Shown here: positions 4,329 to 24,627 of the stretch, piece by piece
Position numbering within the stretch: position 1 is the first letter of the stretch
How the letters are laid out: every line of letters begins with the position of its first letter
Assembly: GCA_016839445.1 (NCBI GenBank)
Contig: JAEOUG010000004.1
Span: 1-28,411 of the forward strand
Direction of reading: 5' to 3'
Length of the DNA: 28,411 bases
Origin: Candidatus Thorarchaeota archaeon
Lineage (GTDB): Archaea > Asgardarchaeota > Thorarchaeia > Thorarchaeales > Thorarchaeaceae
Notes under the pieces: model-generated
Database searches by the model: none
What the model saw: the letters and a program-made list of their open reading frames with translations, nothing else
Told to the model about the DNA's origin: nothing
Position numbers and translations under genes: made by a program

Positions 4329-4331
4329 GTC

Positions 4332-5523: not shown

Positions 5524-7392
5524 TCAGGTCTCCTCTTTGAGACCGAGACGCTCAAGGGTCTCCTTCTTGGGGAGACCGGTCTGTAGGTCCCATCCTCTCT
5601 CTCTGTAGTAATCATCAAGCATGATGTCAAGTTCGACAACCTCCCCCGCAGAGGGACCAATAGGGGCCTTCTCATGGGTGAGCCGCCGAGGCAGGCAGTC
5701 ATCCTTTCTTGTGATGCCTCTCCTCGCGTTGAACAACCTGTTCAGATTGACCACGCGTTCTCCAATCTCCTCAAGTTCCTTCCGACTGTACTCGAGGCCG
5801 TTGTGTATCTTCAGTGCTAATGCAACGTCATCGTAGAAGAACTCTGGAGGGATCTGTGTTCCGTATTTGCAGAGTCCTGCGCTCTCCACCATGACCATGA
5901 AGTCTTCACACTGTTTCACCATCAGACCCTTGTACTTCGGGCTCAGGCGTTCGGCCATCTCGGGCAAGAATTCCTCTCCGAATCGCTTCTTGATGTCCTC
6001 GTCGAATCCGACCTCATCTAGTACGGGAAACGCGTAGAGGTGGTCTGCTCCTCTCGCTGCAGTGACAGCCGCTAGCCCCATCGACTTCTGAGCCCGTGGT
6101 TCCTGTCCGGCAATCTCCTGCTTCTTCACGGTCATAACGAACTCCTCAGATCCCCTTCCAAGCTTCTGTGCGGCTCTGGCACTGCCTTCTGCAAGAAGGT
6201 CCCCGAAGCCCTCCCGCAAGGCAATCATCTCTGTGAGTCTGACGATTGTCTCATGATTACCCCAGCCTAGGTCCAAGCCCTCGGTGTCTTCTGATGTTAT
6301 CAGCCCCTCATTCCAGCATTCCATGGCCCAGGATATGGTTGCACCGAGAGAGATTGTGTCCATCCCGTACATATTGGCCAGATGGTGTCCATAGAGTACA
6401 GACTCTAGATTGTCATTGCCACATCTTGATCCCATGGATGACTGAGTCTCAAACTCCGGAGAACCTCCCTCGAAGGCATATGGCCCCTCTCTCACGGCCG
6501 TGTATCGCCCGCATCTCTGGAGACATGACCAGTCCGCCCTCGCTTTCACAAGGTACTTCTCATTGATTGCGTCTCCACTGATCTTCTCGAAGTTGTCAAA
6601 GACTCCCTGCTTCATGTTGTAGCTGGGCAGACGACCTATATGCTGCATCAGTTCAACGAGGCTTGTGGTTCCGTACTTCACTCGACCCGGAGTGAAAGGA
6701 TTCTCCATCATTCGCCTGTAGAACTCGTCCATGTGCTTCAAGTAGTTGCTCGGGTCCGCAACCTCAAGCTTCCCCGTACCCCTTACTGCAATCGCCTTGA
6801 GCTTCTTTGAACCCATGACTGCACCGAGTCCCGAGCGTGCAGAAGCCCTGTCTCGGTCATTCATCACCGCCGCGAACCTGACAAGATTCTCTCCCGCTTG
6901 CCCAATTGAGATCACTCTACAAAGATGGCCGTGGGTCTCTCTAAGAATGCTGTCAGTCTCAAAGACATCCTTGCCCCAAAGATGTTTGGCATCCCGTATC
7001 TCTATGCGCTCGTCTTCGATGCTCAGGTAGACAGGGCTCTTTGATATGCCAGTGAAGAAGACTGCATCATAGCCTGCGAGTTTAAGTTCGGGGCCCCAGA
7101 AGCCTGCTGCGTGGCTTTCTCCCCATACATCAGTCAGAGGTGAGAGCGCCGCAACTACATGGCGTGAGGCCTGGGGGAACATGGAACCAGTCAGAGTTCC
7201 AGTTGCGAATCCCAGGACATTCTCAGGTCCAAGGGGGTCTGCGTCTGCTGGTATGAGATCATAGAGTACCTTGGAGAGGTATCCTGCCCCCAGGAGATAC
7301 TTCCTGACGAGGTCCTCTTCGAGAGGTCGTTTCTCCACAGTACCCTTGCTCAAGTCAACCCATATGCTGTACCCACCAACTCCGTGAATCAC
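5524..7392 (-). CDS. aor: Aldehyde:ferredoxin oxidoreductase (AOR/WOR) family, copy 1
   Basis: SPLTDVWGESHAAG, IGQAGENLVRFA, GLGAVMGSKKLKAI, PEFET, GMDTISLG, RGADH, DDCLPRRL, YYRERGWD. Start set at GTG 7392 (GGAGGT RBS, GTGA overlap with the ferredoxin stop); the track's extra 51 aa overlap the upstream gene. Confidence 0.92.
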   Translation of the reverse strand: MIHGVGGYSIWVDLSKGTVEKRPLEEDLVRKYLLGAGYLSKVLYDLIPADADPLGPENVLGFATGTLTGSMFPQASRHVVAALSPLTDVWGESHAAGFWGPELKLAGYDAVFFTGISKSPVYLSIEDERIEIRDAKHLWGKDVFETDSILRETHGHLCRVISIGQAGENLVRFAAVMNDRDRASARSGLGAVMGSKKLKAIAVRGTGKLEVADPSNYLKHMDEFYRRMMENPFTPGRVKYGTTSLVELMQHIGRLPSYNMKQGVFDNFEKISGDAINEKYLVKARADWSCLQRCGRYTAVREGPYAFEGGSPEFETQSSMGSRCGNDNLESVLYGHHLANMYGMDTISLGATISWAMECWNEGLITSEDTEGLDLGWGNHETIVRLTEMIALREGFGDLLAEGSARAAQKLGRGSEEFVMTVKKQEIAGQEPRAQKSMGLAAVTAARGADHLYAFPVLDEVGFDEDIKKRFGEEFLPEMAERLSPKYKGLMVKQCEDFMVMVESAGLCKYGTQIPPEFFYDDVALALKIHNGLEYSRKELEEIGERVVNLNRLFNARRGITRKDDCLPRRLTHEKAPIGPSAGEVVELDIMLDDYYRERGWDLQTGLPKKETLERLGLKEET

Positions 7393-7880
7393 TCTTCCAC
7401 CTCCCTTGAGTAGAGCACGTCCGCATGCTGGTCGTAGAGTTTCCTCATCCTCTGATCCTTGTCGCGAGCTTCCAGGTCTGCATCCGAGGTCATAAAGAGG
7501 GCGTCCGCAGGGCAACGGCCCACACACTGACCGCATTGGATACACTTGATGGCCTTCCCTGTGTCAGGGTTCAGCCGGATTGCATTGTAAGGACAGGCCT
7601 CTATGCAAGCTCCTGTACCATCACACTTCTTGTTGTTGACAATCACAACTCCCTTTGACGTTCGGGAGAGCGCGTCGTTGGGACACGCCGAGATACAGGG
7701 AGCATCCGGGCAGTTGCGGCAGAACAGCGGGAAGTCCAGGGCCGGCTCTATCCTCATGACTCGGACTCGTGCTCTCTCCGGACTGATGACCTTCAGATAG
7801 TACATGCTGCAGACATTCGCGCAGATCATGCAACCACTACAGACTTCTGGGTCTCCAAAAACGAACTTGAGTTCCGCCAT
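7389..7880 (-). CDS. 4Fe-4S ferredoxin-like small subunit (DmsB/AorA type), partner of AOR copy 1
   Basis: CSGCMICANVC, CRNCPDAPCISACP, CDGTGACIEACP, CIQCGQCVGRCP. Confidence 0.9.
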   Translation of the reverse strand: MAELKFVFGDPEVCSGCMICANVCSMYYLKVISPERARVRVMRIEPALDFPLFCRNCPDAPCISACPNDALSRTSKGVVIVNNKKCDGTGACIEACPYNAIRLNPDTGKAIKCIQCGQCVGRCPADALFMTSDADLEARDKDQRMRKLYDQHADVLYSREVEE

Positions 7881-9242
7881 CTAACGTACCTCCATAGCGT
7901 TCCCACATCCCATCCTGAGAAATTCTCCGTGACCTGCCTTGCCTGTCACTTGTCCTTCTCCGAACACCTGAGTGCCTCTCACGAAAGTTGCCTCTGGCAC
8001 CCCCTTCATGGTCATTCCCTCATAGAGAGTCCATCCGCACTTCGACAACATCATCTCCGGGCCGATTTTCTCCTCTCTGTGCTGGTCCACGATGACCAGG
8101 TCCGCATCCGCCCCAATCCTGATTGTGCCCTTGCGAGGGTACAGGCCGAAGATTCTAGCTGGGTTCCTTGAGGTGACACGAAGGAGTCTGGACAGGGAGA
8201 GCCTTCCCTTGCTGATACCTTCTGAGAGGAGAACCCTTAGAATCATCTGGATGCCATCTACACCTGACCAAGCTACTCGGATGTCATCATTGCCTGTCTC
8301 TTTCTTCTCAGGAGGGCAGGGTGCGTGGTCGCTGACAGTTATGTCTATTGTTCCACGGAGGATTGCCGACCAGAGTGCTGATCGGTCTTGCTTGCTCCGG
8401 AGTGGTGGATTCATCTTGCTCTTGGGCCCTATCAGGTTCATCTCGTCTCTCTCCAGCACAAGATGATGTGGGCAGACCTCAGTTGTCACCATGGTTCCCT
8501 GAAGTTTCCCGCGCTCGACTTCCGAAACCCCCTCCTTTGTCGTGATGTGGGCGACGTGGAGATGACCTCCTGTGTTCTTGACAATGGACACCATCTGTCT
8601 TACTGCCAGTTCCTCTGCAAGGTTTGGTCTGGAGAGTGCATGACTGATTGGTGCATCCCAGTCTCCTCCGAGGCTCTTGCCAAACTCGTCTAGTATTCCT
8701 TGGTCCTCACAGTGAACCGTCAAGTGGCCTCCATATTCTGAGACCTCGCTCAGAGCCTTGGTGATTACACCATTGGTTGTCTGATATGGCTCACAGGTGA
8801 AGGCCTTGAACCCCGCAATCCCCTCTTCCACCATCGAGGGTATCATCTTGACGTTCTCTGAGTTCATCATGCCTGCATAGAAGGTGAAATCGACCAAGGA
8901 CATCTTATTGCCAGTCCGGATCTTCTCTTCAACAGCTGAGGGAGTGTCTACCTGGTTTGTGAGCGGCATGTCCACGATGGTGGTCACTCCGCCTGCTGCC
9001 GCAGCCATGCTCCCTGAGGTGAAGTCCTCGTGGTCGAGTCTGTTTGGATCATGAACGTGCGCGTGTCCGTCAATGAGCCCAGGAATGAGTAGCTTGGCTT
9101 CTGCATCGATGACGTTGTCCGCGACAGGCAGATGGCTATCCTTCGCTATCGCGCATATTCTACCATCCTCAACGGCGACTCCTCCGGTGACGATCCCGGA
9201 CTCAAGTAGCACCTTCGCGTTCTTGATGACAAGACTGACCAC
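7881..9242 (-). CDS. Cyclic amidohydrolase (dihydropyrimidinase/allantoinase/dihydroorotase family)
   Basis: PGLIDGHAH, AAAGGVTTIVDMP, carbamylated-Lys site GFKAF, HCED, HVAH, EVCPHHL, KMNPPLR, SDHAP. Confidence 0.88.
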   Translation of the reverse strand: MVSLVIKNAKVLLESGIVTGGVAVEDGRICAIAKDSHLPVADNVIDAEAKLLIPGLIDGHAHVHDPNRLDHEDFTSGSMAAAAGGVTTIVDMPLTNQVDTPSAVEEKIRTGNKMSLVDFTFYAGMMNSENVKMIPSMVEEGIAGFKAFTCEPYQTTNGVITKALSEVSEYGGHLTVHCEDQGILDEFGKSLGGDWDAPISHALSRPNLAEELAVRQMVSIVKNTGGHLHVAHITTKEGVSEVERGKLQGTMVTTEVCPHHLVLERDEMNLIGPKSKMNPPLRSKQDRSALWSAILRGTIDITVSDHAPCPPEKKETGNDDIRVAWSGVDGIQMILRVLLSEGISKGRLSLSRLLRVTSRNPARIFGLYPRKGTIRIGADADLVIVDQHREEKIGPEMMLSKCGWTLYEGMTMKGVPEATFVRGTQVFGEGQVTGKAGHGEFLRMGCGNAMEVR

Positions 9243-9245
9243 CGT

Positions 9246-9527
9246 TTAACCTCCTCCGACCGGCGGAAACATTGCGATTGCATCGCCGTCGTTCAGCACG
9301 GTTTCATATCCGTCGAGAAGCTCAATTCGCCTGCCGTTGACCATGCACGAAAAGAACTGCTTCAGGCGATTGGTCTTGGCGTCGATGACGGTATCAGTGA
9401 ACTTCTTCCCATATCTCTCAGAGAGGCCGTCAATAACCTGTCTGACCGTGTCCGCCTCCATCTCGATGCTTCTCACACCTGTGATTTCACGAATAGTGGC
9501 GAAGAACTTCACAGTCACTCTGGCCAA
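9246..9527 (-). CDS. moaD: MoaD/ThiS/SAMP ubiquitin-like sulfur carrier
   Basis: VTVKFFATIREITG...VNGR...DGDAIAMFPPVGGG*. TTG start at 9527, 5 nt after a GGTGA RBS; the track's N-terminal 44 aa overlap the divergent promoter region. Confidence 0.88.
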   Translation of the reverse strand: MARVTVKFFATIREITGVRSIEMEADTVRQVIDGLSERYGKKFTDTVIDAKTNRLKQFFSCMVNGRRIELLDGYETVLNDGDAIAMFPPVGGG

Positions 9528-9560
9528 GAGATTCACCAAGGTAGGCTGATGAGGCTCTGT

Positions 9561-9606
9561 GATTAAAACAGTTCCTTTGTGTCCGCTCCATGCATAGGAG
9601 TTATAG
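9561..9606. promoter_or_regulatory. Divergent promoter region (moaD operon / pfkB)
   Basis: TTTTAATC on minus (9561-9568) ~34 nt before the moaD start; GTTATAG on plus (9600-9606) ~30 nt before ATG 9636. Confidence 0.4.
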
Positions 9607-9635
9607 GTTGGCTGATATGTGTCGGTCCGAAGTCG

Positions 9636-10526
9636 ATGGAACTCATTGTTGTCGGACACCTGAGCAGAGACCTCATCATCACGCCTGATGCGCGACGTGA
9701 GACCCTTGGCGGATCCGCTGCGTATGCGATGATTGCACCAAGTATCGGTGCTCTCGGCGCAGGCATTGTGTCAAAGGTCGGTGCGGATTTCGAGCATCAC
9801 TATTTGGCCACACTCGAGAAGGCCGGTCTGGACTTGACAGGCCTGCATGTTGAAGGTCTTCACTCTACACGGTTCGTGAACATCTATGATGAGAGCGGAG
9901 AGAGAACGCAACGAGTTGAGGCTGTTGCTGCACCCATCCGCCCAGATGACTTCTCCGATGCACATCTTGAATCGACTATCGTTCACTTCTCACCCCTCAC
10001 AGGCGACGAGGTTGAAGTCCGTTGCATTGAAGAGGTCCGAACCAGCGGCGCATTGACCTCCTTGGATGTGCAGGGGTTTCTTCGGAAGGTAGGGGCGCAG
10101 GGGGACGTACTTCCCTGCTCTTGGGCCGATCGGGATGAGGTGTTGACGCTCGTTGATGTGGTCAAATTCCACGAGGATGAGCTCAGGGCTGCCTATTCCT
10201 ACGAGTCTGAGATCTCGGTGGCGAACGAAATCCTCGGCCTCGGACCGAGGGTAGTCTTAGTCACAAAGGACCGGCGTGGTTCAACAATATACACTCGCAA
10301 CTCACAGGTAGATATCCCTCTCATTCTTGCCCGAAGACAAGCAGACACAACTGGTTCAGGGGACATCTACGCGATTGCCTTTCTTCTTGAATACATGAGG
10401 ACCGCGGACGTGAAACGAGCAGGGCTCTTTGCAGCTACTTGTTCCTCCTTCAATGTCGAAACGGTGGGTCCGTATGGTATTCCAACGAGAGAGAGGGTGG
10501 AGGACCGGCTGAACAAGTACCTCTAG
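9636..10526 (+). CDS. PfkB/ribokinase-family carbohydrate or nucleoside kinase
   Basis: LIVVGHLSRD, LGGSAAY, SLDVQG, anion hole DTTGSGD. Start moved to ATG 9636. Confidence 0.88.
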   Translation: MELIVVGHLSRDLIITPDARRETLGGSAAYAMIAPSIGALGAGIVSKVGADFEHHYLATLEKAGLDLTGLHVEGLHSTRFVNIYDESGERTQRVEAVAAPIRPDDFSDAHLESTIVHFSPLTGDEVEVRCIEEVRTSGALTSLDVQGFLRKVGAQGDVLPCSWADRDEVLTLVDVVKFHEDELRAAYSYESEISVANEILGLGPRVVLVTKDRRGSTIYTRNSQVDIPLILARRQADTTGSGDIYAIAFLLEYMRTADVKRAGLFAATCSSFNVETVGPYGIPTRERVEDRLNKYL

Positions 10527-10571
10527 CAGAGGATAGAAGGTTTTTTCTTCTGGACAGTCGGCGGCGTAAAT

Positions 10572-11756
10572 ATGCTTGAAGATCTGGATGAGCTGATGGA
10601 TGAGTCTGGGATTGATGGTCTTTTGGCGTCAGGAAACGCCTTTGATGACCCAAACATCTTCTGGTTCACAGGATTCCGTTCTTCTGACAGTATCATCTAC
10701 CTGAAGAGCAAAAACGAAGAGGGCCTGATTGCCACTTCTCTGAACACACTAGCGAGAGTCGAGAAGGAGAGCTTCATCAAGAGAACTCATGACCTCTCTG
10801 ATATTCATCTCTCAATCCTCTCTGAAGGTCAACGCGTTGACAGGAACCGTGACAGGTTCTATAAGTCACTGCTGAAGGCCGAGTTCTCAGGAAAGACACT
10901 AGGTGTTCCCGATGAGTTTCCAGCTAGTCATCTGATGACACTACTTGACCTTGGTTATGATGTCAAGGCAGTACCTGAATTGGTAAGAAAGGCGAGGGGC
11001 ACAAAGAGCACAAGAGAGGTCAATATCATCAGGAAAGCCGGAAAGGCCACAGTCGCCGCTATGAATAGAGTGGTAGACGTGATACAGAATGCGTCGGTTA
11101 CCGAGAATCGTACGCTGGTGCACAGGGGCTTGCCCTTGACTGTAGGCCGAGTCAAGTTGATTCTTGAACAGGCGCTGCTGGAGAGCGATGCCGAGTCCGC
11201 AGAGGACGCCATAGTGGCTGTGGGTAGAAGGGGCTACGATTGGCACTACCTTGGAAGACCCTCTGACAGATTGCGGTCCGGCTTGCCCATCATAATGGAC
11301 GTGTTTCCAAGATTGAAGCGCGATCGATACGTCGCCGATGTCACCAGAACCATTGTGAAAGGGCAGCCCTCTCAGAAGGTCCAGAGGATGTTCGACGCAG
11401 TCCTTGATGCCCAGAACGCATCACTAGATGCTCTCACATCCGGAGCGCGCATAGACGATGTGAACCTGGCCTGCTTCGAGACCATGAAGAAGCACGGGTT
11501 CGATTCACGCAGATTGAACCCAGATGCAAGAGAGGGAATGACCCATGGCCTCGGTCATGGTATCGGACTTGAGGTTCATGAGGAACCAAGCATGTATGAG
11601 ATTGATGGGACATTCTCCGAGGGTCACGTGATGGCGATAGAGCCCGGAGTGTACCTGCGTTCGGTTGGCGGTGTGAGGGTAGAGAACGACTATCTTGTAT
11701 CAAATCGCAAGCCCCGGCTACTTACGCCTGGAATTGAGCAGGTCCTATACGTCTAA
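10572..11756 (+). CDS. M24 family Xaa-Pro aminopeptidase/prolidase
   Basis: Metal ligands intact: IMDVFPR, YVADVTRT, HGLGHGIGLEVHEEP, IEPG, RVEND. Confidence 0.9.
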   Translation: MLEDLDELMDESGIDGLLASGNAFDDPNIFWFTGFRSSDSIIYLKSKNEEGLIATSLNTLARVEKESFIKRTHDLSDIHLSILSEGQRVDRNRDRFYKSLLKAEFSGKTLGVPDEFPASHLMTLLDLGYDVKAVPELVRKARGTKSTREVNIIRKAGKATVAAMNRVVDVIQNASVTENRTLVHRGLPLTVGRVKLILEQALLESDAESAEDAIVAVGRRGYDWHYLGRPSDRLRSGLPIIMDVFPRLKRDRYVADVTRTIVKGQPSQKVQRMFDAVLDAQNASLDALTSGARIDDVNLACFETMKKHGFDSRRLNPDAREGMTHGLGHGIGLEVHEEPSMYEIDGTFSEGHVMAIEPGVYLRSVGGVRVENDYLVSNRKPRLLTPGIEQVLYV

Positions 11757-11761
11757 GGTGC

Positions 11762-12856
11762 TCAGGGGATACTCAGTGCATGGTATGGGCAGACTGAGAT
11801 GCACATCCCGCACGACTGACATCGTTCTGGGTCAATCTCGAAGTGGTTCTTCTTCTTGTCCACCGAGATTGCACTATAGACGCATGACTTCATGCATAGC
11901 GCACATCTCGTGCACTTCTCGAGGTCTATATGAGGTGTACCTGAGAGCGTCTTTGGGCTCTCGACATGCTTGAGTGCAATGCCACGAATGTCCTCCAGCG
12001 AGTCGTGACCATGTTCGTTCAGCCAATCTCTCGCCTCAGAGGCAATCTTACCATAGACGGCATCTCCTCCCAGGATTGCTGCGGTGCAGACCTGCACAGC
12101 TGATGCACCCACCATCATGTACTCGATTACGTCTTCTCCGCTCATTACGCCTCCGACGGCTATCACTGGTAGATCAACAGACTTCGCGATGTCGGCCACG
12201 CAACGCAGGGCTATGGGTTTGAGCGCAGCACCACTCATCCAACCCTCTCCAGCACTGCTTCCGAGCAGAGGCATGCCTGTTTCAATGTTGATTCTCAGAC
12301 ACGGACCGTAGGTGTTGATACCGACAATGCCATCCACATGGGGCTCAAGTGATTTCGCCACCTCTGCTACGTCCACCTTGGGACTCAGCTTGGCAAATAT
12401 GGGCACTTCTACAGCCTCTTTCAATGCCTTGGCAATCTCAACATGGCCCCCGACATAGTGTGTGCTAAACTCAATGGCATGAACTCCTGCCTCTTCAAGC
12501 CTGGGACCGATGGATGCGACGTCTTCAGGTGTGTAGCCCACACTAGCGATGAGCGGCAGTCCTGCGCTCAGCGCAATGGCGTACTCCCTTTCGAGCCATC
12601 TCTCAAGAGGAATCTCACTCCAAAGCTCTGCATTCAGCATTCCCTGTTTGGTGCCTAATACTCCGCTCTTGAGAGCGGCCATATTCGGATGCGGTATCTC
12701 CGCCGCTCTCACGCTCACAGTTTTCGCGACAAGGCCCCCTGCGCCACCTGCCGCGGCATTCAGGAGGGTCATACCGTCTCGTGAGGTTGGGCCTGCCGCA
12801 GTGAGTACTGGGTTCTTGAACCTCATGTCTTTGATGGATACCCGAAGATCAGCCAT
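11762..12856 (-). CDS. PreA-like dihydropyrimidine/dihydroorotate dehydrogenase family flavoprotein with C-terminal 2x[4Fe-4S] domain
   Basis: KNPVLTAAGP, VAKT, NAELWSE, AKLSP, GINT, SGAALKPIAL, VGGV, GASAVQVCT; C-terminal CTRCALC...C and CQSCGMCISVCP. Confidence 0.88.
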   Translation of the reverse strand: MADLRVSIKDMRFKNPVLTAAGPTSRDGMTLLNAAAGGAGGLVAKTVSVRAAEIPHPNMAALKSGVLGTKQGMLNAELWSEIPLERWLEREYAIALSAGLPLIASVGYTPEDVASIGPRLEEAGVHAIEFSTHYVGGHVEIAKALKEAVEVPIFAKLSPKVDVAEVAKSLEPHVDGIVGINTYGPCLRINIETGMPLLGSSAGEGWMSGAALKPIALRCVADIAKSVDLPVIAVGGVMSGEDVIEYMMVGASAVQVCTAAILGGDAVYGKIASEARDWLNEHGHDSLEDIRGIALKHVESPKTLSGTPHIDLEKCTRCALCMKSCVYSAISVDKKKNHFEIDPERCQSCGMCISVCPYHALSIP

Positions 12857-14731: not shown

Positions 14732-14830
14732 GTCTGATTGCGCCTTCTGAAGTATGGAACACACGTAGGCGTTGTAGTCTGGGCCATGCCGGAGACCTCA
14801 CTTAAGGGTAGCGCAACTATTGGGCACAAA

Positions 14831-16762: not shown

Positions 16763-17250
16763 TACTGACCCTCCTCTACAATCAACCCTTCCATTTGTGC
16801 TGGTATCTTCATGCCTGTCTTCCTCTTGGTATATCCGTCCTTCTTAGACTCGACCAAGGCGATGGCACCGTATTCACAGGCTCTTACGCACGCGGGCTCT
16901 CCATCACACAGATCACACTTCACAGCCTTTCTTGTTTGCGAATCAATCTCGATACCGCCAAACACACAGGCCGAAACGCAGTTGCCACATCCGATGCAGA
17001 CCTCTGGAATCACACTCAATACGCCGAACTCGCTAGTGACTATGGCATTGTTTGGACAAGCGTTCTGACACAGTGGGTCTTCGCACTGAAGACAGACCAT
17101 AGGCACAATCAGATTACGCGCCTCATCCTTCAGAATCTGGATTCGGGAACGTTTTGGGTTGATGGTCCTTGTCTTTGACAGGGAACAGGCCATCTCGCAG
17201 TTCCTGCATCCCGTGCAGCGTTCGACATCAATGGCAAGAAAGGGGCTCAT
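16762..17250 (-). CDS. 4Fe-4S ferredoxin-like small subunit (DmsB/AorA type), partner of AOR copy 2
   Basis: CTGCRNCEMAC, CLQCEDPLCQNACP, CIGCGNCVSAC, KCDLCDGEPACVRAC. AGGAG RBS; stop overlaps the AOR GTG start by 1 nt. Confidence 0.92.
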   Translation of the reverse strand: MSPFLAIDVERCTGCRNCEMACSLSKTRTINPKRSRIQILKDEARNLIVPMVCLQCEDPLCQNACPNNAIVTSEFGVLSVIPEVCIGCGNCVSACVFGGIEIDSQTRKAVKCDLCDGEPACVRACEYGAIALVESKKDGYTKRKTGMKIPAQMEGLIVEEGQ

Positions 17251-17299
17251 TCGTGGTCGCTCTCCTGTGAAGTGCAGCCTTCTGAATCAAGACTCTGCC

Positions 17300-17307
17300 C
17301 TTTAAGT
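17300..17307 (-). promoter_or_regulatory. Putative TATA box for the ferredoxin-AOR2 unit
   Basis: ACTTAAAG on minus, ~50 nt upstream of ATG 17250, with an ACAGGAGA RBS in between. Confidence 0.35.
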
Positions 17308-17431
17308 TGTTACTCTCTGGCGGCTAGATGTCGCACAAAAGTATTAGTGGTGACTCATCACGGCTTCCTGTACTCAGCGAAGCGTTCGCGTGTCAAGGAA
17401 GGCATTCATGCAACGAAAATGATGTGGGACT

Positions 17432-19240
17432 ATGAGACAATCATTCGAACGAGAGCCGTCCCCACAGAGGAAGCAGTTTCGTCAAGTAGCTGACACCATG
17501 CACATTCCTGTTCTTGAGTTCGACCCACTCCTTCTATTGATGTATGCCAACTCCGCGGCTCTAGATCTGCTGCAGCTCGACAAGAGCACTCTGGAGAAGG
17601 GTGTGCATGTTGACGCGCTCATTGCGCCTGAGCAGCAGGACTTGGTCCATGATGGCCTGAAGAGCCTGAAGAAGGGTGCTGACCCCACCTCAATCTCCCT
17701 TCGAGTTGTAGTCGGAAGCGGTCTCAAGGTTCCAACTCAGGTCTACACGGACAGAATCATCATAGACGGCCGCCTTGCCGGCTATGTCGCATACGTGGTA
17801 GACCTCTCGCGCAGGGCGGCAGCCGAGGAAAAGATACTCTCAAAGATGGAAGTCCTTGAGCTTATCGTAGACTACTACAGCTTTAGCGGCATCATCATTG
17901 TAGATGAGCACTACAGGTTCGAGTATGTCAACGACAAGATGTGCGACATCACGGGTAGACTTCGGAGCGAACTGCTCGGGCATGACTTCCGCGAGTTCCT
18001 ACATCCTGACAGCGTCGACTTGGTAGCAGAACGATATCAGCTGCGGCAGAGGGGAGAAGAAGTACCCTCGATGTACGAGTTCAAGATTCTAAGGAAAGAT
18101 GGCCAGGCTCGGGACATCAGAATGAATGTAGGTGTAATCAAAGGGCGAGACGGGAGAATGAGAACCGTGGCACAACTCCTCGACATCACAGAGGAGAAGG
18201 AGCGAGCCCGACTACTGACAGAGTCCGAGCACCGATATCGCTCTCTTGTTGAAACCATGGATTCTGGGTTGAGTGTGGACAACACAGCGGGGCGAACTGT
18301 CCTTGCCAATGATGCACTTCGGCGCATGCTTGGATATGATTCGATCGAGGACATTGTGGGAATCCCCATCACTGAGATGCTGCTCGGATGGACTGAAAAC
18401 GACGTAAAGACGAAGCTGGACGCGAGGAAACTTGGAAAGATAGAGCACTATGAGGCCCAGCTCAAGCACAAGTCAGGAGCGTCTGTGCCCGTCATGGTAT
18501 CCGCTTCTCCCCTTTTCGGGCCCGACAATGAGTACCTAGGAAGCATGGCGGTATTCACTGATGTTTCAGAGCTGAAGGGAGCAGAGGCCGAGGTCCACTT
18601 CCTGCTAGACCTACTGCTCCATGACATTGGCAATCAGCTCCAGCTGATTCTTGCTGGGGGCGACTTCCTCACTCCTGATGTTGATTCTGCACAGATTGAG
18701 CGTTCGCGTCGGTACATCCTGGATGGGGCAAATCGATGCCTCGAGCTCATACAGAAGGTCCGAAGGGCTGAGGAATCTAAGGAAGAGCCACTACGTCCTG
18801 TCAACATCGCAAAGGTGATTCGCACCGAAGCCGAACTCGTCTACAGGCAGAGAGGCGTTCAGGTGGACCTAGGTGACCTGAATGATCACATTCTAGTTCT
18901 GGCTGATCAGGCCGCCTCACAGCTATTATGGAACCTTCTGGAGAACGCAGTTGTACACAACAATCTCGACCCTCAGAACAAGCTGGTCAAGGTGAGAGGT
19001 CGTGTCTACGGGGACACCTTCATGCTCTCAGTAGCAGACAATGGTCCTGGACTGAGCGACTCAAAGAAGGCCGAGCTCTTCGACCCGTCACGCCGCTACG
19101 GCGGAGTCGGACTCCATCTTGTACGTCGTCTGGTTGAGAAGTACGGTGGCACCGTTGAGGTCACAGACCGTGTCAGAGGGAAGCCGGAGCACGGTCTGAA
19201 GTTCGTGATTCGCCTGCAGATGGCCGAGCAGGCAAGCTGA
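17432..19240 (+). CDS. Cytoplasmic multi-PAS sensor histidine kinase
   Basis: Three PAS/PAC-like repeats (YANSAAL; YVNDKMCDITG...FLHPD; LANDALRRMLGY), H-box HDIGNQL, N-box NLLENAVVH, DNGPG, GGVGL. Confidence 0.9.
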   Translation: MRQSFEREPSPQRKQFRQVADTMHIPVLEFDPLLLLMYANSAALDLLQLDKSTLEKGVHVDALIAPEQQDLVHDGLKSLKKGADPTSISLRVVVGSGLKVPTQVYTDRIIIDGRLAGYVAYVVDLSRRAAAEEKILSKMEVLELIVDYYSFSGIIIVDEHYRFEYVNDKMCDITGRLRSELLGHDFREFLHPDSVDLVAERYQLRQRGEEVPSMYEFKILRKDGQARDIRMNVGVIKGRDGRMRTVAQLLDITEEKERARLLTESEHRYRSLVETMDSGLSVDNTAGRTVLANDALRRMLGYDSIEDIVGIPITEMLLGWTENDVKTKLDARKLGKIEHYEAQLKHKSGASVPVMVSASPLFGPDNEYLGSMAVFTDVSELKGAEAEVHFLLDLLLHDIGNQLQLILAGGDFLTPDVDSAQIERSRRYILDGANRCLELIQKVRRAEESKEEPLRPVNIAKVIRTEAELVYRQRGVQVDLGDLNDHILVLADQAASQLLWNLLENAVVHNNLDPQNKLVKVRGRVYGDTFMLSVADNGPGLSDSKKAELFDPSRRYGGVGLHLVRRLVEKYGGTVEVTDRVRGKPEHGLKFVIRLQMAEQAS

Positions 19241-19305
19241 ACGCGCTACCAAAATCGTTATGTCAATCATCCATCAGTGTCTGCTCCGCAAGGGAGGACT
19301 AGGAC

Positions 19306-20700
19306 ATGACTGAAGGATCAATCCTGATCAATAATGGTTACATTCTCACCATGGATGATAGACGCGAGATAATCAAGCATGGCTCTGTCTACATTGAGGA
19401 TGGCAAGATTGTTGAGCTCAACAAGACAGACAACATGGTGAAACGCACCGCTGACGTTGTTATTGATGCACATCACAAGCTGGTCATGCCCGGCCTGATT
19501 GACACACACATGCATCTGGCTCAGGCTCTGATTCGCGGATGCGCTGATGACGTGTCACTTGTTGACTGGCTGAAGAAGTACGTCTGGGTGCTGCAGGGCA
19601 ATTTCACAGAAGAAGATGGAAGGGTTTCCACAGAGCTCTGCATGGCAGAAATGATCCGCACTGGAACTACGTCCTTCTTGGAATGCATGATTCACTCGAG
19701 GTACGGCTTCAACGGAATTGCGGAAGCCGTTGAGAAGGCGGGAATGAGGGCTGCCCTCTCAAAGATAATCATGGACTCAACAGGCTACGCTGACAGCGAG
19801 GATATCATGTACGACGGCATGATAGAGAGTAAAGATGAATGCCTCAGAGAGACCGAGGACATGTATCAGAAGTGGCATGGTAATGCAGAGGGCCGAATAC
19901 AAGTCTGGTACGGCCTCCGGTCACTCGGTGCCGTCAGTCCCGATCTCTTCCGCGAGGTTTCTCGACTAGCTAGGGAAAAGCAGACCCACATGACCATGCA
20001 CCTTGGAGAGGTTGTCGATGACGTGAGATACGTCCGGGAGAACTTCGGAACGAACCTCACTGGATTTGCGCGCGACCACAACCTGCTGGGACCAGACATG
20101 GTCTTCGCACATGGGATACATTTCGAGGATGAAGAGCTGGAGGTTCTGGCGAAGACGCGGTCTAACATTGCTCACTGCCCCGCCAGCAACACGAAGTTGG
20201 CCTCGGGTTTTGCGAAGGTTCCAAAGATGCTGAAGGCAGGTGTGCCTGTGTCTCTGGGATGCGACGGAGGGCCCAGCAATAATACGTATGACATGGTTCG
20301 TGAGATGCGCCTGGCTGCACTGATCCACAAACCCGTGGCGAATGACCCTCTAGTTGTCAGTGCGGAACAGGTCATCGAGATGGCGACACTCGGAGGGGCT
20401 GCCGCTCTAGGATTGAGTGACAAGATTGGGTCCATCGAGCTCGGGAAGCTGGCTGATATCATCCTCGTCGATTTGGACGACATTGGCCTAACACCAGCTA
20501 GCAATCCTGTATCGAATATTGTGTACTCAGGGAGTGGCTACGCTGTTGACACAACCATCGTGAACGGTCAGGTTCTCATGCAGGGGAAGAAACTACTCAC
20601 TCTGGATGAGGAAGAGATCAAGAGGAAGGCTCGCTTCCATAGTGAGAGGCTTCTTGAGAGGTCGGGTGTTGACATCAGCCCGAAGTGGCCTATTCGTTGA
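19306..20700 (+). CDS. Amidohydrolase-superfamily deaminase (8-oxoguanine/guanine/MtaD-like)
   Basis: MPGLIDTHMHLAQ, TMHLGE, AHCPASNTKLASG, LGCDG, ATLGGA, GSIELGKLAD. GGAGG RBS. Confidence 0.9.
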   Translation: MTEGSILINNGYILTMDDRREIIKHGSVYIEDGKIVELNKTDNMVKRTADVVIDAHHKLVMPGLIDTHMHLAQALIRGCADDVSLVDWLKKYVWVLQGNFTEEDGRVSTELCMAEMIRTGTTSFLECMIHSRYGFNGIAEAVEKAGMRAALSKIIMDSTGYADSEDIMYDGMIESKDECLRETEDMYQKWHGNAEGRIQVWYGLRSLGAVSPDLFREVSRLAREKQTHMTMHLGEVVDDVRYVRENFGTNLTGFARDHNLLGPDMVFAHGIHFEDEELEVLAKTRSNIAHCPASNTKLASGFAKVPKMLKAGVPVSLGCDGGPSNNTYDMVREMRLAALIHKPVANDPLVVSAEQVIEMATLGGAAALGLSDKIGSIELGKLADIILVDLDDIGLTPASNPVSNIVYSGSGYAVDTTIVNGQVLMQGKKLLTLDEEEIKRKARFHSERLLERSGVDISPKWPIR

Positions 20701-20704
20701 GCAC

Positions 20705-21940
20705 CTATGCTATGATAGCCTCTCTCTCGAACATCTTCGCCCCTATGATGAGCGTGACTATGGTGAACGCCACCATGTAGATGACGTTGATTGACAACGC
20801 TGCTATGTTTGGATACGGCGAGAGCACTCCATTGAGGAACATTATCGCATGGCTGAACGGAATGAACCACACAAAGGCTCCAAACAGGCCCCCAAACTGC
20901 GAGATGCTCCCTGTAAATCCGAGGATACCAATCACCATCGTGGGGACCAGAAGGACAAGATTGTTGACTGATTCCGATGTCGCCTGATCCTTGGCCATTG
21001 TGGAAATGACAATGCCAATACCGATTGCGCACAATAGCACTAGGAACTGGCAGAACACGATAAGTGGGATGGAGGTCGTGCTGACGCTGTAGTATGCAAT
21101 CTGGGCTGCGCTGTCGAGACTCCCTAGGGCACGCACGATGACAAGGTAGTTGAAGGCCACTATACCCACTACCGTGAATATCGAATAGAACGCGGATAGC
21201 AGAATGCCTGCCACTAGCTTGGCTCCAAGTATCCGCAGCCTGCTCAGCGGCACCACAAGAAGAGCCTCGAGAGTGTGCTGCTCTCGTTCTCCGGCAAATG
21301 ACTTGCTCACATATGGGCTTGGCGCGAGTACTGAGGTAATCATCACCAAGAAGATTGCCAGCTGGTGTCCGTAACTAGCTTCTGCGGCTGGGGGCGTACG
21401 GCGATCGATGTTAAGATCCGTCACACGAACCTGCCACTGTGAGAATATCGCGACTCTCTCTGCCGCAGCACTTGCCTTGAAGCTGCCTGTGTTGACGTAG
21501 ATGATTAGGGTCGTCACGTTATACTGCTGAAGAAATGACGTGAAGTTGGCGGGTATGTAGACCCATACCGGTGCTGTACGGTTGTTCCATGACGCCAAGC
21601 CATCTTGAGCAGAAACCGTTGTAAGGTTTGAGAATTTCAGGAACCTCTGGTTCTCAGGTAGCAGCCTCTCGTACTGATATTGAGCAACTATTGAATCGTA
21701 GAGATTCTGCCCCGCAGTATTGTTTGCGTATGGGTCCTCGATGGTGATGTAGACGTGCTCTGGTTCAATGGCCTGAGCGAATAGGAAGTTGAGGAAGAAT
21801 CCCTGAAATGTCCAAGCGAAGAGCGGGCTAAGCATGAAGCCAAAAAGCAGCCATCGAGAACGGAAGATGGATTTGAGTTCCTTCTTCAGGAGCCAGACTG
21901 TCTTCTCTCCGTTCTTCTTCCTCCTCCTGCTCTCGTTCAC
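20705..21940 (-). CDS. ABC-2 type exporter permease (NatB-like)
   Basis: KKELKSIFR, large extracellular loop, FAGEREQHTLEALLVVP, ~6 TM helices; overlaps the ATPase stop. Confidence 0.88.
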   Translation of the reverse strand: MNESRRRKKNGEKTVWLLKKELKSIFRSRWLLFGFMLSPLFAWTFQGFFLNFLFAQAIEPEHVYITIEDPYANNTAGQNLYDSIVAQYQYERLLPENQRFLKFSNLTTVSAQDGLASWNNRTAPVWVYIPANFTSFLQQYNVTTLIIYVNTGSFKASAAAERVAIFSQWQVRVTDLNIDRRTPPAAEASYGHQLAIFLVMITSVLAPSPYVSKSFAGEREQHTLEALLVVPLSRLRILGAKLVAGILLSAFYSIFTVVGIVAFNYLVIVRALGSLDSAAQIAYYSVSTTSIPLIVFCQFLVLLCAIGIGIVISTMAKDQATSESVNNLVLLVPTMVIGILGFTGSISQFGGLFGAFVWFIPFSHAIMFLNGVLSPYPNIAALSINVIYMVAFTIVTLIIGAKMFEREAIIA

Positions 21941-22716
21941 TCCGCGTACACCCCCTCCCCTGTCACGAGCCCTGTGAAGACCTCCTCAAGGTTTGCCGCT
22001 CTGAACTTCTCTTCCAGTTCAGATGACTTGCCGACTGCTGCAAGCTTGCCCTCATTCAGAATCCCTACTCTGTCACACAGCTCTCCTATCTCATTGAGGT
22101 CGTGAGTGGTCAAGATGATGGTCAGCTGTTCCTCCTTGCTCAGCTTCTTCAAGAGGTTGCGAACGACGCGTGCGCCAATGGTGTCTATTCCCGTCGTTGG
22201 CTCGTCCAGAAATATGATCTCAGGTTCTATGATGAGCGCTCGGGCAACCAGCACCTTGCGCTTCATTCCCCCGCTGAACCCCTTCACTTGGTAGTCCTTC
22301 TTTTCTAGGAGGCCCACGGTCTCAAGAAGGGAGTCAGCTCTCTCATAAAGCTCCTCTTTCGGGATACCGTAGAGGCCACCGTAGTAGACCAGATTCTCCT
22401 GTGCCGTGAGTCTGTCGTAGATGCCCGCCTCCTGAGGTAGTAGAGCTACTCTCTCTCGGATATCGTCGATCTCCTTGACTACATCCCTGCCCAACACGGA
22501 GGCATTTCCGGCCGTGGGAGTCAAGAGACCTACAAGTATTCGAATCAGTGTCGTCTTGCCAGCTCCGTTTGGGCCCAGCAGACCAAAGACCTCACCCTTC
22601 CGTATCTCTAGGTCCACATTGTCAAGAGCAATGACCTCACGCTTCTTACCCTTCTCGAAGATCTTGGTGAGTCCCTCTGTTCTGATTACGACCTCGCTCT
22701 CCATATCTAACATCAC
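21937..22716 (-). CDS. ABC transporter ATP-binding protein
   Basis: Walker A GPNGAGKTT, signature FSGGM, Walker B IIFLDEPT, H-loop TTH. Confidence 0.93.
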   Translation of the reverse strand: MMLDMESEVVIRTEGLTKIFEKGKKREVIALDNVDLEIRKGEVFGLLGPNGAGKTTLIRILVGLLTPTAGNASVLGRDVVKEIDDIRERVALLPQEAGIYDRLTAQENLVYYGGLYGIPKEELYERADSLLETVGLLEKKDYQVKGFSGGMKRKVLVARALIIEPEIIFLDEPTTGIDTIGARVVRNLLKKLSKEEQLTIILTTHDLNEIGELCDRVGILNEGKLAAVGKSSELEEKFRAANLEEVFTGLVTGEGVYAE

Positions 22717-23480
22717 ACCACATGATCGACCTCTGGGAAGGGCGGTTCTCCCTTCACATCCTTAAGGAACTCGTAGGCCGCAAGAATCTCGCCTTCCGTT
22801 CCTTCGATGAACAATGTGACTGACCCCTCTGCACCATTCACGCCGCCTGCAGATATCGGTGCTGCGTCAACTCCGAAGAGTGCCTCCAGAGCGTCTATCT
22901 CAGTGAAGGCGACTCCCTCTGTGACACCGGCTATGCCTACGGGCGTACCGATGCTGTATTCCCAGTCATCCTTTCCAAACTGTCCGCAAATCTCTTCATA
23001 GGCCACAGGGATGGACTTCTCCAGTCCAACGGGCATGATGATCTTGATGTTCCTTGAGAGGGCTGCACCGATGAAGGAGCCCCATGTGCCTCCTGTGTCA
23101 CTCGCGAGGAGAATCAGCGGGACGTAGTTCTCATCGAGTCCGTTCGCGCCCTTGATGATAACATCGTTCGGGCCCATTTGCTCGAGAACGTCCTTCACCT
23201 TCTTGCCCTCAAGGTACTCGCCCTTGTGGAATATCGCGTCAAATGCCCGCTTCTTGGGGTCCGTGACTGCTAGGCCCTTCGGCACTACAATACCAGCGAT
23301 GTGCTTGGTCTTGTCGTATTCTCCAAGTATTTCTTCTACTAGATACGCCGAGGTTGTGCCAAGAGTGATGCAGAGATAACCACTCTTGAGGGCCTCTTTG
23401 ATGAGATCGGTTGCCAAGAGCCCCTTTGCTATGAGTCTCTTGCCTTCAGCAGGTGTTAGTGTGACCAGGAGTTTCGTCAT
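22713..23480 (-). CDS. Conserved hypothetical protein (possible NagB/RpiA/CoA-transferase-like fold)
   Basis: 255 aa with GAGGAG RBS, 4-bp overlap with the ABC ATPase; LTPAEGKRLIAKG, GTTSAY, IKGANGLD, GGT, PVGLEK, AGGVNGAEG look like conserved motifs. Fold assignment is a guess. Confidence 0.7.
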   Translation of the reverse strand: MTKLLVTLTPAEGKRLIAKGLLATDLIKEALKSGYLCITLGTTSAYLVEEILGEYDKTKHIAGIVVPKGLAVTDPKKRAFDAIFHKGEYLEGKKVKDVLEQMGPNDVIIKGANGLDENYVPLILLASDTGGTWGSFIGAALSRNIKIIMPVGLEKSIPVAYEEICGQFGKDDWEYSIGTPVGIAGVTEGVAFTEIDALEALFGVDAAPISAGGVNGAEGSVTLFIEGTEGEILAAYEFLKDVKGEPPFPEVDHVV

Positions 23481-23667
23481 TGTGGCTCTCTCCTCTCGAC
23501 ATCACTTCACCATATCACTCTGTTGGCTCCGATGCCACCTCCCACTATGGGGTCCTGAGATTACAGCCCGTTGAGCTAACTATTGATAGCTGCACATGCC
23601 CGCGGGCCCTGCAAATCCGAGGTCCAATCCAGCAACGTATGATTTCTCCAGAAAACCGAAACACCTT

Positions 23668-24627
23668 ATGCGACAAAGCGCTCCACTTCGAGATACAGGT
23701 GATGCAGTGGAACGAAGCAGTGTTCTGGAGATCCTTAGGATTGGTCACGAGATTCTGAAATCGGGCACTCCTGAGTTGCACGACCGTGTCCATGCACTGG
23801 GAATGATGTTCTATGGTGCATCTGAGCATGATAGGCAAGCGTCACAGCTTGCCGCGGCCATGCTGGGCGTTCCCCTTGTCGATCTGAGCTGGAGCGATGC
23901 CGGGGCGAAGTCATCACGTCTCCTCCTCGAAGAAGTCAGGATGGCTTCCAAGGCGGTTGACCTTCTGGTCACCTGTTTCTCTGAGTCCGAGACCTTCGGC
24001 GATGGTTATGAGGTGTCAAGAGGGTTCAGCAGCGCATCGGATGTCCCAGTTGTCAACGTGGCTGACGACATACTAGGCTGGCAGTCTGCCCTAACCCATC
24101 TCTTGGGATTCGAGGAGCGACGTGGGGATCTCTCGGGTCGGCAGTTAGTCGTCTCATGGGGATTCGGATCATCGTTCTCTAGGCCAACCACTGCACACAG
24201 CCTAGTCCTGGGAGGTCTTATGGTTGGTGCCAATGTGAGAATCGTAAGCCCTCCTGAGTTCTCTCTGATGAACAGGATTCGAAGCAAGGCAACGAAACAG
24301 GCATCAGATCTCGGCCTCACGTTCGAGCAGCTCCATGAGTTCGACGGCGCCTTGGCAGGAGCGGATGCGATTTTCGCATCTAACTGGTTGAGGCTTGATG
24401 ACTATAATCACCCGGAGCGACACTGGGCCTCTGCAAAGGAATACCAAGACTGGTGCATAACGCCGGACAACCTGCCGCAGGACTGCATCTTCTCTACTGA
24501 GCCTCCCCTGCAGCCTGAGCTCCTGTACAGCCCTGCAATGGTAGAAGATCCGAGGAACATAACATCCGGTTGGCTGTCTCGGCGAGCCATCACTTTGGCG
24601 GCAAGTACACTACACTCATTGCGGTGA
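23668..24627 (+). CDS. Divergent YgeW/ornithine-carbamoyltransferase-like protein, catalytic motifs degenerate
   Basis: Collinear with the ATCase/OTCase fold (VPVVN, LVVSWGFGSSFSRP, VRIVSPPEF, ADAIFASNW, DWCIT). Start uncertain: ATG 23596, ATG 23668, or GTG 23707 (after an AGGTGA RBS). Confidence 0.75.
   Translation: MRQSAPLRDTGDAVERSSVLEILRIGHEILKSGTPELHDRVHALGMMFYGASEHDRQASQLAAAMLGVPLVDLSWSDAGAKSSRLLLEEVRMASKAVDLLVTCFSESETFGDGYEVSRGFSSASDVPVVNVADDILGWQSALTHLLGFEERRGDLSGRQLVVSWGFGSSFSRPTTAHSLVLGGLMVGANVRIVSPPEFSLMNRIRSKATKQASDLGLTFEQLHEFDGALAGADAIFASNWLRLDDYNHPERHWASAKEYQDWCITPDNLPQDCIFSTEPPLQPELLYSPAMVEDPRNITSGWLSRRAITLAASTLHSLR

Follow-up and report, generated by a model that had tools for sequence, protein, structure and literature searches.

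A candidate archaeal purine-catabolism island combining AOR-family oxidoreductases with a UacX-type reductase in Thorarchaeota

Introduction

A reductive, oxygen-free route for the breakdown of purine and uric-acid rings was described from gut bacteria in 2025. Its gene cluster in Escherichia coli comprises xdhD-ygfM, ygfK, ssnA, hyuA, ygeW, yqeA, ygeY and ygeX, and a variant in Clostridioides difficile carries UacX and UacY (PMC12507026; bioRxiv 10.1101/2025.04.24.650524; available sections of both). UacX is presented there as a PF01180 homologue of PydA that has no flavin adenine dinucleotide (FAD) domain and replaces YgfK; it is a proposed 2,8-dioxopurine reductase, with ferredoxin as the proposed electron donor (PMC12507026, available sections). 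A second described system is AorABC of Aromatoleum aromaticum, whose aorABCDE operon holds MoaD-like genes and in which aorD and aorE are proposed to act in cofactor synthesis (PMC6365974, available sections). Here we analyse a gene island of a Candidatus Thorarchaeota archaeon (GCA_016839445.1) that combines two AOR-family pterin oxidoreductases with a UacX-type reductase and cyclic amidohydrolases. The window under study is one whole contig of 28,411 nucleotides (JAEOUG010000004.1, referred to as C145) from a 2.9 Mb genome assembled into 190 contigs, with a completeness of 89.8% and a contamination of 6.45%.

An original prediction, made from the letters of the window, had proposed a nucleobase-degradation island with AORs instead of xanthine dehydrogenase (XDH). 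Our analysis supports a purine-degradation island of this kind, and the assignment of its reductase to the UacX family sharpens the analogy with bacteria; the role of the AORs stays a proposal from sequence. We read the island as an archaeal variant of reductive purine-ring (uric acid/2,8-dioxopurine) catabolism in which AOR-family enzymes would stand in the XDH position, and give this reading slightly less than an even chance.

Results

Genes were called from the open reading frame (ORF) list of the window together with Pfam and NCBIfam profile scans, by which every gene named in the prediction was found in its place. Two operons lie on the minus strand. The first, MoaD-Amido1-Fd1-AOR1, encodes a MoaD-like small protein (9246 to ~9518, with an uncertain start and an open frame extending to 9659; TIGR01687, 81 bits > 49.5), a binuclear-metal cyclic amidohydrolase of the allantoinase/hydantoinase/dihydroorotase superfamily identified with NCBIfam (Amido1, 7881-9242), an AorA-like polyferredoxin matching several Fer4 families (Fd1, 7389-7880) and its partner, an AOR-family pterin oxidoreductase of tungsten type (AOR1, 5524-7392). 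The second, Fd2-AOR2-CLC-UacX, encodes another AorA-like polyferredoxin with Fer4 matches (Fd2, 16762-17250), its AOR-family partner (AOR2, 14831-16762), a CLC-CBS channel recognised by Pfam (12905-14764) and the UacX-type reductase (11762-12856). The predicted tight coupling of the amidohydrolase with MoaD, ferredoxin and AOR is borne out at the codon level: Fd1 begins with an ATG directly after the stop codon of Amido1 and ends in a TGA that overlaps the GTG start of AOR1, and three bases separate the MoaD-like gene from Amido1. Fd2 and AOR2 overlap by one base.

The reductase, a flavin mononucleotide (FMN)/Fe-S protein of PreA/PyrD-like build with 2x[4Fe-4S] according to Pfam, NCBIfam and homology, had been labelled PreA-like. 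That label had to be replaced, as the protein is neither PreA nor PyrD: it scored below the family cut-offs of NF006183 (PreA, 180 < 335) and TIGR01037 (PyrD, 171 < 270), and the catalytic Cys loop of dihydroorotate dehydrogenase (DHODH) and dihydropyrimidine dehydrogenase (DPD), ELNxSCPx plus ~16 residues, is replaced by EFSTHYVGGH. A homologue search over 1.84 billion cluster representatives returned 257 proteins at E<=1e-30, of which 40 were aligned; the Cys loop is missing from all 40. With a nine-row reductase alignment, 80 genomic loci were fetched, 11 from Thorarchaeota and 69 from other phyla at 46-55% identity. The window reductase is 46% identical over its full length (170/370, E 1e-118) to a C. 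difficile homologue that shares an ELSTHYVG loop and sits between SsnA-PbuX and HyuA-SeXDH, a gene context by which it matches UacX. From the same context we take UniProt Q181U4 to be this C. difficile gene. Another 46% identical homologue, in a complete Peptostreptococcaceae genome, lies near SsnA (601 > 444), YgeX (628 > 532), YgeY (719 > 321), a carbamoyltransferase, the xanthine permease PbuX (521 > 414), D-hydantoinase (554 > 393) and a selenium-dependent XDH (1392 > 830). The predicted model of the window reductase (pLDDT 94.9) has pig DPD as its best fold match (TM 0.81-0.83). The protein is a member of the UacX family and a candidate purine-ring (2,8-dioxopurine) reductase. Some UacX-like proteins from elsewhere carry a fused electron-input module, either a GltD/PreT-like one for NAD(P)H (P0229, P0271) or an F420-binding one of FrhB/FdhB type (P0234, P0242, P0247), a pattern suggesting that other lineages supply the same ring reductase from different electron donors.

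The AORs of the island were compared with the other paralogues of the genome and with AORs from UacX-type clusters in a tree of 44 sequences (IQ-TREE quick). The cluster AORs formed three clades: A, with AOR1 (9 rows, SH-aLRT 99); B, with AOR2 (15 rows); and C (10 rows, SH-aLRT 99). Together they make up a 34-row clade (SH-aLRT 98) that leaves out five of the six other full-length AOR-type paralogues of the genome, including the canonical one on C36; the C34 paralogue, the sixth, branches off just outside the clade, at a fork that the tree does not resolve. In most lineages a clade B AOR lies directly upstream of the reductase. For the AORs of the window and of C68, identity to members of their clades in other phyla is 48-63% (55-63% for clade A orthologues); between members of the three clades and the C36 paralogue it is 36-43%. 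Against solved AORs, C36 scored 651, 625, 593 and 544 bits and the cluster AORs at best 426-431 (AOR1, 431/399); against the AorABC structure 8c0z, the cluster large subunits scored 368-398 bits and C36 544.

Several residues distinguish the cluster enzymes. Common to clades A, B and C are the changes of RGGCH to RGADH and of LPAYD to (S/A)GQ(D/E). The CGR of the canonical CxxCxxxCGR motif is kept in clade A and reads CK(Y/K) in clades B and C, noted as CK(Y/F) for AOR2. At the first [4Fe-4S] ligand position, AOR1 has Asp, as have eight of the nine clade A members. Both AFOR domains are present (AFOR_N and AFOR_C, 248 and 428 bits in AOR1; 243 and 408 bits by Pfam in AOR2), and a metal-near Glu/His pair is kept, which we take to be equivalent to Glu313 and His448 of Pyrococcus AOR. 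Judged by motifs, PDB scores and separate clades, the cluster AORs are not of the canonical type represented by Pyrococcus AOR and AorB. The prediction had considered that they might fall in characterised aldehyde-oxidising clades; they appear instead as three clades of their own, with lower scores to the solved enzymes.

Fd1 is kept upstream of AOR1 in relatives, and an alignment of Fd2 shows 16 invariant Cys. The MoaD-like protein, which ends in PPVGGG, probably acts in the maturation of the pterin cofactor, and other AOR/UacX clusters contain MoaD-like genes too. A third cluster-type AOR, of clade C, lies with its own polyferredoxin on C68, away from the island (L140:8334-10728, minus strand). 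Its surroundings include a class-IV aminotransferase and a glutamate dehydrogenase, with a PNP/UDP-type nucleoside phosphorylase ~7 kb away.

Amido1 scored just above the cut-off of the NCBIfam allantoinase model (TIGR03178, 360.2, barely > 357.85), above that of pyrC_multi (322.5 > 279) and below that of D-hydantoinase (TIGR02033, 326.7 < 393). Its best solved relative is the L-hydantoinase 1gkr, and its translation contains HxH, FK, HCED, HVAH and SDHAP. Identity is 27-33% to the hydantoinases of the bacterial clusters and 40-45% to homologues from AOR/UacX clusters of other archaeal phyla. Orthologues (61-74% identity) were found in 71 of 85 genomes and 15 of 16 genera of the family, and the rest of the phylum yielded one 41% homologue in one genome. 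Among the 120 matches listed by a protein search, nearly all are from Thorarchaeota where named, under the public names allantoinase or dihydroorotase, and no outgroup came from this search; an ESM Atlas tag, "dihydropyrimidinase-like", decides nothing. General Pfam and NCBIfam scans of the window gave no other allantoin-pathway gene, the genome not having been searched for them. We regard Amido1 as the candidate ring-opening enzyme in the HyuA position.

The second amidohydrolase, Amido2 (19306-20700, plus strand), belongs to the MtaD/DadD/SsnA superfamily by models that it matches below cut-off (PRK07228, 412 < 522; SsnA, 222 < 444). The prediction of a nucleobase-deaminase-like amidohydrolase holds at the level of the superfamily; within it, these scores put Amido2 nearer to 5'-deoxyadenosine/methylthioadenosine (MTA) deaminases than to SsnA. 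The only other gene of this type in the genome is SsnA-like (C21, 363.5 < 444) and has an uninformative context. Amido2-type genes also occur in UacX clusters, at a Baldrarchaeota locus (430 bits) and at a Promethearchaeota locus (423 bits, 54% identity). Amido2 may be a ring-opening or deaminating partner, or else a housekeeping deaminase. In another Asgard genome, an Amido1-like gene (40%) is followed by three Amido2-like amidohydrolases (G029:C18, L037:235-14201); the 15 kb fetched there contain no AOR or UacX match, and the UacX-like gene of that genome is on another contig.

The prediction had hinged on conserved synteny, and this was found at several depths. The block is colinear in all eight close relatives. 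Among the 14 other genera of the family, Fd2-AOR2-reductase is kept in 11 and MoaD-Amido1-Fd-AOR1 runs uninterrupted in 10. Beyond the family, genes within 8 kb of the reductase were surveyed at the 69 non-Thorarchaeota UacX-family loci. An AOR is present at 17 (16 archaeal and one in a Bacillota metagenome-assembled genome, MAG), XDH at 17, all bacterial, both at none and neither at 35. The archaeal AOR loci are labelled Bathyarchaeia, Korarchaeia-type Thermoproteota/Nitrososphaerota, Baldr-, Geotherm-, Hermod- and Promethearchaeota. Since the grouping recurs in other phyla, it is more than chance. The reductase, the amidohydrolases and the three AOR clades are linked across phyla, and AOR and XDH exclude each other in the loci examined.

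These clusters differ in completeness. Korarchaeia-type loci have the co-directional order Fd-AOR-UacX-Fd-AOR-Amido1-AOR and carry a Bmp/PnrA-type binding protein with an ABC transporter; those of Bathyarchaeia, Baldr-, Geotherm-, Hermod- and Promethearchaeota are partial, with fewer AORs or no Amido1-like gene in the flank. Additional genes in the archaeal clusters include SsnA (L073, 456 > 444; L104, 527 > 444) and Amido2-type genes (L073, L137), and carbamate kinase with intact carbamoyltransferases is found in L099, L104 and L137. L099, the Bacillota-labelled MAG, has the sole bacterial-labelled AOR-type cluster, in which carbamate kinase and a carbamoyltransferase accompany Fd-AOR(A), Fd-AOR(B), UacX and one more AOR. 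The AORs of L099 stand out in the tree by an odd composition, and gene transfer or mis-binning may be the cause.

Co-distribution was assessed in one set of 400 Asgard genomes with thresholds of E<=1e-80 for UacX-like proteins and E<=1e-190 for clade A AORs. UacX-like proteins occurred in 96 genomes and clade A AORs in 91, with both in 87, UacX alone in nine, AOR-A alone in four and neither in 300. The matches are confined to five GTDB families, and both genes are often on one contig. Taken together, Fd2-AOR2-(CLC)-UacX and MoaD-Amido1-Fd1-AOR1 probably form the core of the system, and Amido2 and the Fd-AOR pair on C68 are probably members as well.

The window contains no xdh gene, as the prediction had noted, and the XDH-family domain PF02738 had no match in the 89.8% complete genome, a control search being positive in 6 of 14 genomes. 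In small samples, PF02738 was absent from three of five other genomes with an AOR-linked locus and present in all five archaeal UacX genomes that have no AOR in the locus. YgfK was not found in the genome. YgeX and YgeY, already reported missing from the window, gave no orthologue in a search of the incomplete genome either (best scores 50.9 bits against a cut-off of 274 and 117.5 against 321.5). A carbamate kinase gene (arcC) is present on C131 (376 > 358), adjoined by a RidA gene and unlinked to the island. The contexts of the C21 SsnA-like gene, the C131 arcC and the C68 AOR hold no clear further pathway genes.

A carbamoyltransferase-fold gene (23596-24627, plus strand) matches PF00185 (38.8 bits > 29.4) in its C-terminal part, the N-terminal domain being without a match. 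Its earlier label, YgeW-like, proved weak: on the YgeW model, whose cut-off is 500, the protein reaches 31 bits, and other residues stand in place of STRTR, HPxQ and HCLP. ESM Atlas gave a lead to YgeW (0.91), and relatives are 32-49% identical to one another. With the catalytic motifs lost, we rejected it as a working YgeW; it is a degenerate transcarbamylase-fold protein whose membership in the pathway is doubtful. This fast-evolving gene is followed by a well-conserved radical-SAM gene (the pair spanning 23596-25774, plus strand), which is 73% identical in a relative.

Housekeeping and catabolic pyrimidine genes were located elsewhere in the genome. PyrC is on C8 (pyrC_multi, 313 > 279), and PyrD and PyrK are on C29 (323 > 269 and 283 > 224). 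A complete reductive pyrimidine cluster on C56 (L040:7659-14207) holds dihydropyrimidinase (475 > 393), a CN-hydrolase of ureidopropionase-like type, a class-III aminotransferase, PreA (434 > 335) and a CoA-acylating methylmalonate-semialdehyde dehydrogenase (533 > 448). Amido1 and the UacX-like reductase are third paralogues, 28-34% identical to these pyrimidine counterparts. The possibility raised with the prediction, that the genome has no PyrC and PyrD besides Amido1 and the PreA-like protein, was rejected on the strength of the C8 and C29 genes, and the C56 genes likewise speak against it. Since C56 already encodes the whole reductive pyrimidine pathway, we also rejected this identity for the island.

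The island holds further genes. A PfkB-family kinase (9579-10526, plus strand, Pfam PfkB) and an M24 metallopeptidase-fold hydrolase (10572-11756, plus strand, Pfam Peptidase_M24) lie between the two operons; each occurs in 13 of the 14 genera, inside the block throughout the family, and neither had a match in the 69 loci from other phyla. The CLC gene is present in five of eight close relatives, absent in G001 and on the JAOUFI010000055 contig, and its site is not covered in the 5.4-kb G351 piece; none of the 14 other genera has it, and one relative, G011, carries a duplicate. We take the gene to have been inserted between AOR2 and the reductase at the level of the genus and to lie outside the system. 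Together with the ABC-2 exporter (20705-22716, minus strand, Pfam/NCBIfam scans), these genes show no linkage outside Thorarchaeota, in agreement with the earlier caution that intervening genes may be unrelated. A PAS sensor histidine kinase (17432-19240, plus strand, Pfam) adjoins Amido2 in 10 of the 14 genera, the two being always neighbours within the family, and is a possible regulator; all evidence for this pairing comes from the family.

Three conserved ORFs have no Pfam or NCBIfam match: 22713-23480 (minus strand, 255 aa), 5171-5518 (plus strand, 115 aa) and 26997-27476 (plus strand, 159 aa). The first, orf255, has the same direction as the ABC-2 exporter and is 63-74% identical in relatives. 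MvhADG-type (VhuA/G/D-like) [NiFe] hydrogenase genes (2107-4823, minus strand) adjoin the AOR1 operon and have no neighbouring HdrA. AOR1 is flanked by vhuD/vhuG matches in 8 of the 14 other genera, and hydrogenase matches are missing from the block in four of eight close relatives (G002, G001, G014, G023). The hydrogenase may supply the island with H2-derived electrons. Rfam and tRNA scans of the window gave no matches, a scan for bacterial-type promoters and terminators found about as many as chance would give (10 where 9.4 were expected, and 10 where 8.7 were), and a Pfam scan gave no purine permease in the window. Metagenome runs with matching DNA, from six studies, are labelled marine sediment, estuary, mangrove and soil; no RNA run was among those listed.

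Discussion

In the proposed purine pathway, the AORs, each with its own four-cluster polyferredoxin, would take the XdhD/DOPDH role and add or remove oxo groups at purine carbons (for example, urate to 2,8-dioxopurine), a chemistry that is the formal nitrogen analogue of the acid/aldehyde interconversion of AOR. The UacX-like flavoprotein, fed through its Fe-S clusters, would reduce the ring; Amido2 (or the C21 SsnA-like protein) and Amido1 would open both rings, and the MoaD-like protein would serve pterin-cofactor synthesis. The gene content supports an upper pathway of this type and points to a lower pathway that is different or missing in this organism. A wider proposal, which we hold a shade more tentatively than the purine reading of the island itself, is that the three anciently diverged AOR clades are purine-ring hydroxylases/dehydroxylases, maybe specialised for C2, C6 and C8, and that with the UacX-type reductase they sustain a tungsten-based purine fermentation in Asgard, Bathyarchaeia, Korarchaeia-type and other anaerobic archaea.

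Several observations weigh against this interpretation. The retained equivalents, as we take them to be, of Glu313 and His448 mean that the active site may still be an aldehyde site, and the AOR tree contained no characterised reference enzyme, so that placement of the clades relative to known subfamilies comes from the PDB scores. The either/or pattern of AOR and XDH covers only half of the loci, 35 of 69 having neither within 8 kb. Nor are the loci independent, since 8 of the 17 with AOR are close Korarchaeia-type relatives, 8 of the 17 with XDH are from Acidobacteriota, and L111 and L112 are 98% alike. Two of the five other AOR-linked genomes, both Korarchaeia-type, hold XDH-family genes elsewhere. 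Amido2, being closer to 5'-deoxyadenosine/MTA deaminase than to SsnA and the only such gene besides that on C21, may be housekeeping. Without a YgeX or YgeY orthologue found, and with a degenerate carbamoyltransferase-like gene, the lower half of the bacterial pathway is missing or different. Finally, flanking genes (mvh, ABC exporter) are often syntenic in the family too, which makes family-level synteny weak evidence by itself.

Among alternative explanations, the one that fares best takes the AORs to be ordinary aldehyde oxidisers. Electrons from fermentation aldehydes would reach the Fe-S clusters of the UacX-like reductase by way of an AorA-like polyferredoxin, with a purine-type ring as the sink; the complex would in effect be an aldehyde:heterocycle oxidoreductase, and the order Fd2-AOR2-UacX would mirror AorA-AorB-AorC. 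We consider this unlikely, though a serious contender. It fits the presumed Glu313/His448 equivalents, the adjacency of Fd, AOR(B) and UacX in 11 of 14 Thorarchaeota genera and most archaeal loci, and the modular use of donors by UacX-like domains, with their GltD/PreT or FrhB fusions. The accessible literature offers two parallels, the ferredoxin proposed for C. difficile UacX (PMC12507026) and the Aromatoleum order of AorA-AorB followed by the flavoprotein AorC (PMC6365974). However, a single donor module would be enough for electron input, yet three old AOR clades with their own polyferredoxins are kept, and these share motif changes relative to canonical aldehyde AORs. Electron input also leaves unexplained why XDH is never beside UacX where AOR is (0 of 34 loci), and how a urate-type substrate would enter in genomes that have no XDH-family gene.

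Alternatively, the breakdown of an N-heterocycle, purine or other lactam, could itself yield an aldehyde or semialdehyde through ring reduction and hydrolysis, in the manner of the enamidase of nicotinate fermentation. The AORs would oxidise this product to the acid and regenerate reduced ferredoxin for the reductase. In favour of such a route, a cyclic amidohydrolase is translationally coupled to Fd1-AOR1; the Amido1 clade is unlike bacterial HyuA (27-33% identity; D-hydantoinase, 327 < 393), and with YgeX and YgeY not found, the archaeal route may differ after ring opening. We nevertheless judge it improbable: three AOR clades would need several aldehyde steps, and bacterial UacX clusters use XDH in this place, not an aldehyde dehydrogenase. 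The reductive uric-acid pathway, as laid out in the available part of PMC12507026, has no aldehyde intermediate.

A little less probable still is that the substrate is no purine, the UacX-like reductase and Amido1 acting on a pyrimidine-like or other heterocycle and the likeness to uric-acid clusters extending to enzyme families only. The DPD-like fold, the scores of Amido1 on allantoinase, dihydroorotase and hydantoinase models alike, the lack of a purine permease in the window and the many Anaerolineae loci that hold the reductase with no purine gene within 8 kb would all be compatible with this. On the other side, the genome already has its complete canonical pyrimidine cluster on C56, the reductase family as a whole lacks the catalytic Cys loop of DPD and DHODH, the neighbours of its bacterial members include xanthine permease, SsnA, Se-XDH and YgeX/YgeY, and Korarchaeia-type clusters carry the Bmp/PnrA-type binding protein with its ABC transporter. 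The block could also be a mosaic of operons without any functional tie, in which AORs that handle aldehydes from amino acids lie beside housekeeping amidohydrolases, held together by general gene-order conservation in the family. This would suit the often syntenic mvh hydrogenase, ABC exporter and leuS flanks and the unlinked PfkB, M24, CLC and ABC genes, but is very improbable given the clustering of the same families, with varying gene order, in six or more further phylum-level lineages of archaea, their co-distribution (87 genomes with both, 13 with one, 300 with neither) and the abutting or overlapping start and stop codons.

If the purine reading is right and the AORs act on the ring, a purine chemistry for which the molybdenum/selenium XDH family is the only known example to date would here take place on a fold and a cofactor unrelated to those of that family. 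N-heterocycles, hitherto the preserve of XDH-type molybdenum enzymes, would be added to the substrates of the AOR family, in a clear non-homologous replacement between two pterin enzyme families, and three of the many unexplained AOR paralogues would acquire a role. It would also extend the bacterial pathway of 2025 to archaea and give abundant uncultured sediment archaea (Thorarchaeota, Bathyarchaeia and others) a testable purine/nucleic-acid catabolism. Should the AORs only feed electrons, a complex of AOR, polyferredoxin and DPD-like reductase would still be a new type of redox module. A search of the accessible literature found no report of an AOR-family enzyme acting on purines, or of an AOR-based archaeal purine pathway; the available sections of PMC12507026 and bioRxiv 10.1101/2025.04.24.650524 mention neither archaea nor tungsten nor AOR.

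Compared with bacterial reductive uric-acid clusters, the island shares the UacX-family reductase, a cyclic amidohydrolase in the HyuA position, an amidohydrolase of the SsnA superfamily, a carbamate kinase, encoded elsewhere in the genome, and an anaerobic, ferredoxin-type redox setting. It differs in belonging to an archaeal genome without the XDH family, where AORs, polyferredoxins and a MoaD-like protein occupy that position. Amido1 is in another clade than HyuA, Amido2 is nearer to DadD/MtaD than to SsnA, and the island has no YgeX or YgeY orthologue, none having come from the genome search either, and no functional-looking YgeW. With PreA/PydA-type DPD and class 1B DHODH the reductase shares an FMN TIM barrel and a C-terminal 2x[4Fe-4S] domain; unlike them, it has no catalytic Cys loop and scores below the family cut-offs.

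Like Aromatoleum AorABC (8c0z; PMC6365974, available sections), the island has an AOR large subunit preceded by a polyferredoxin of about four [4Fe-4S] clusters, along with MoaD-like gene(s), and its Fd2-AOR2-UacX operon has a flavoprotein gene after the large subunit. In contrast to AorABC, an unrelated DPD-like FMN enzyme takes the place of the FAD-containing AorC, of which Pfam detected no homologue in the window; the large-subunit motifs are different, and in one operon an amidohydrolase is translationally coupled. The XDH family, of molybdenum-molybdopterin cytosine dinucleotide/selenium hydroxylases, is unrelated in fold and cofactor chemistry to the bis-pterin AOR fold of the island enzymes. 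Yet the AORs hold the same neighbourhood position as the selenium-dependent members of that family (XdhD, DOPDH/XdhAC), next to UacX-, SsnA- and HyuA-type genes, and like them depend on a pterin cofactor, with a proposed potential that is similarly low.

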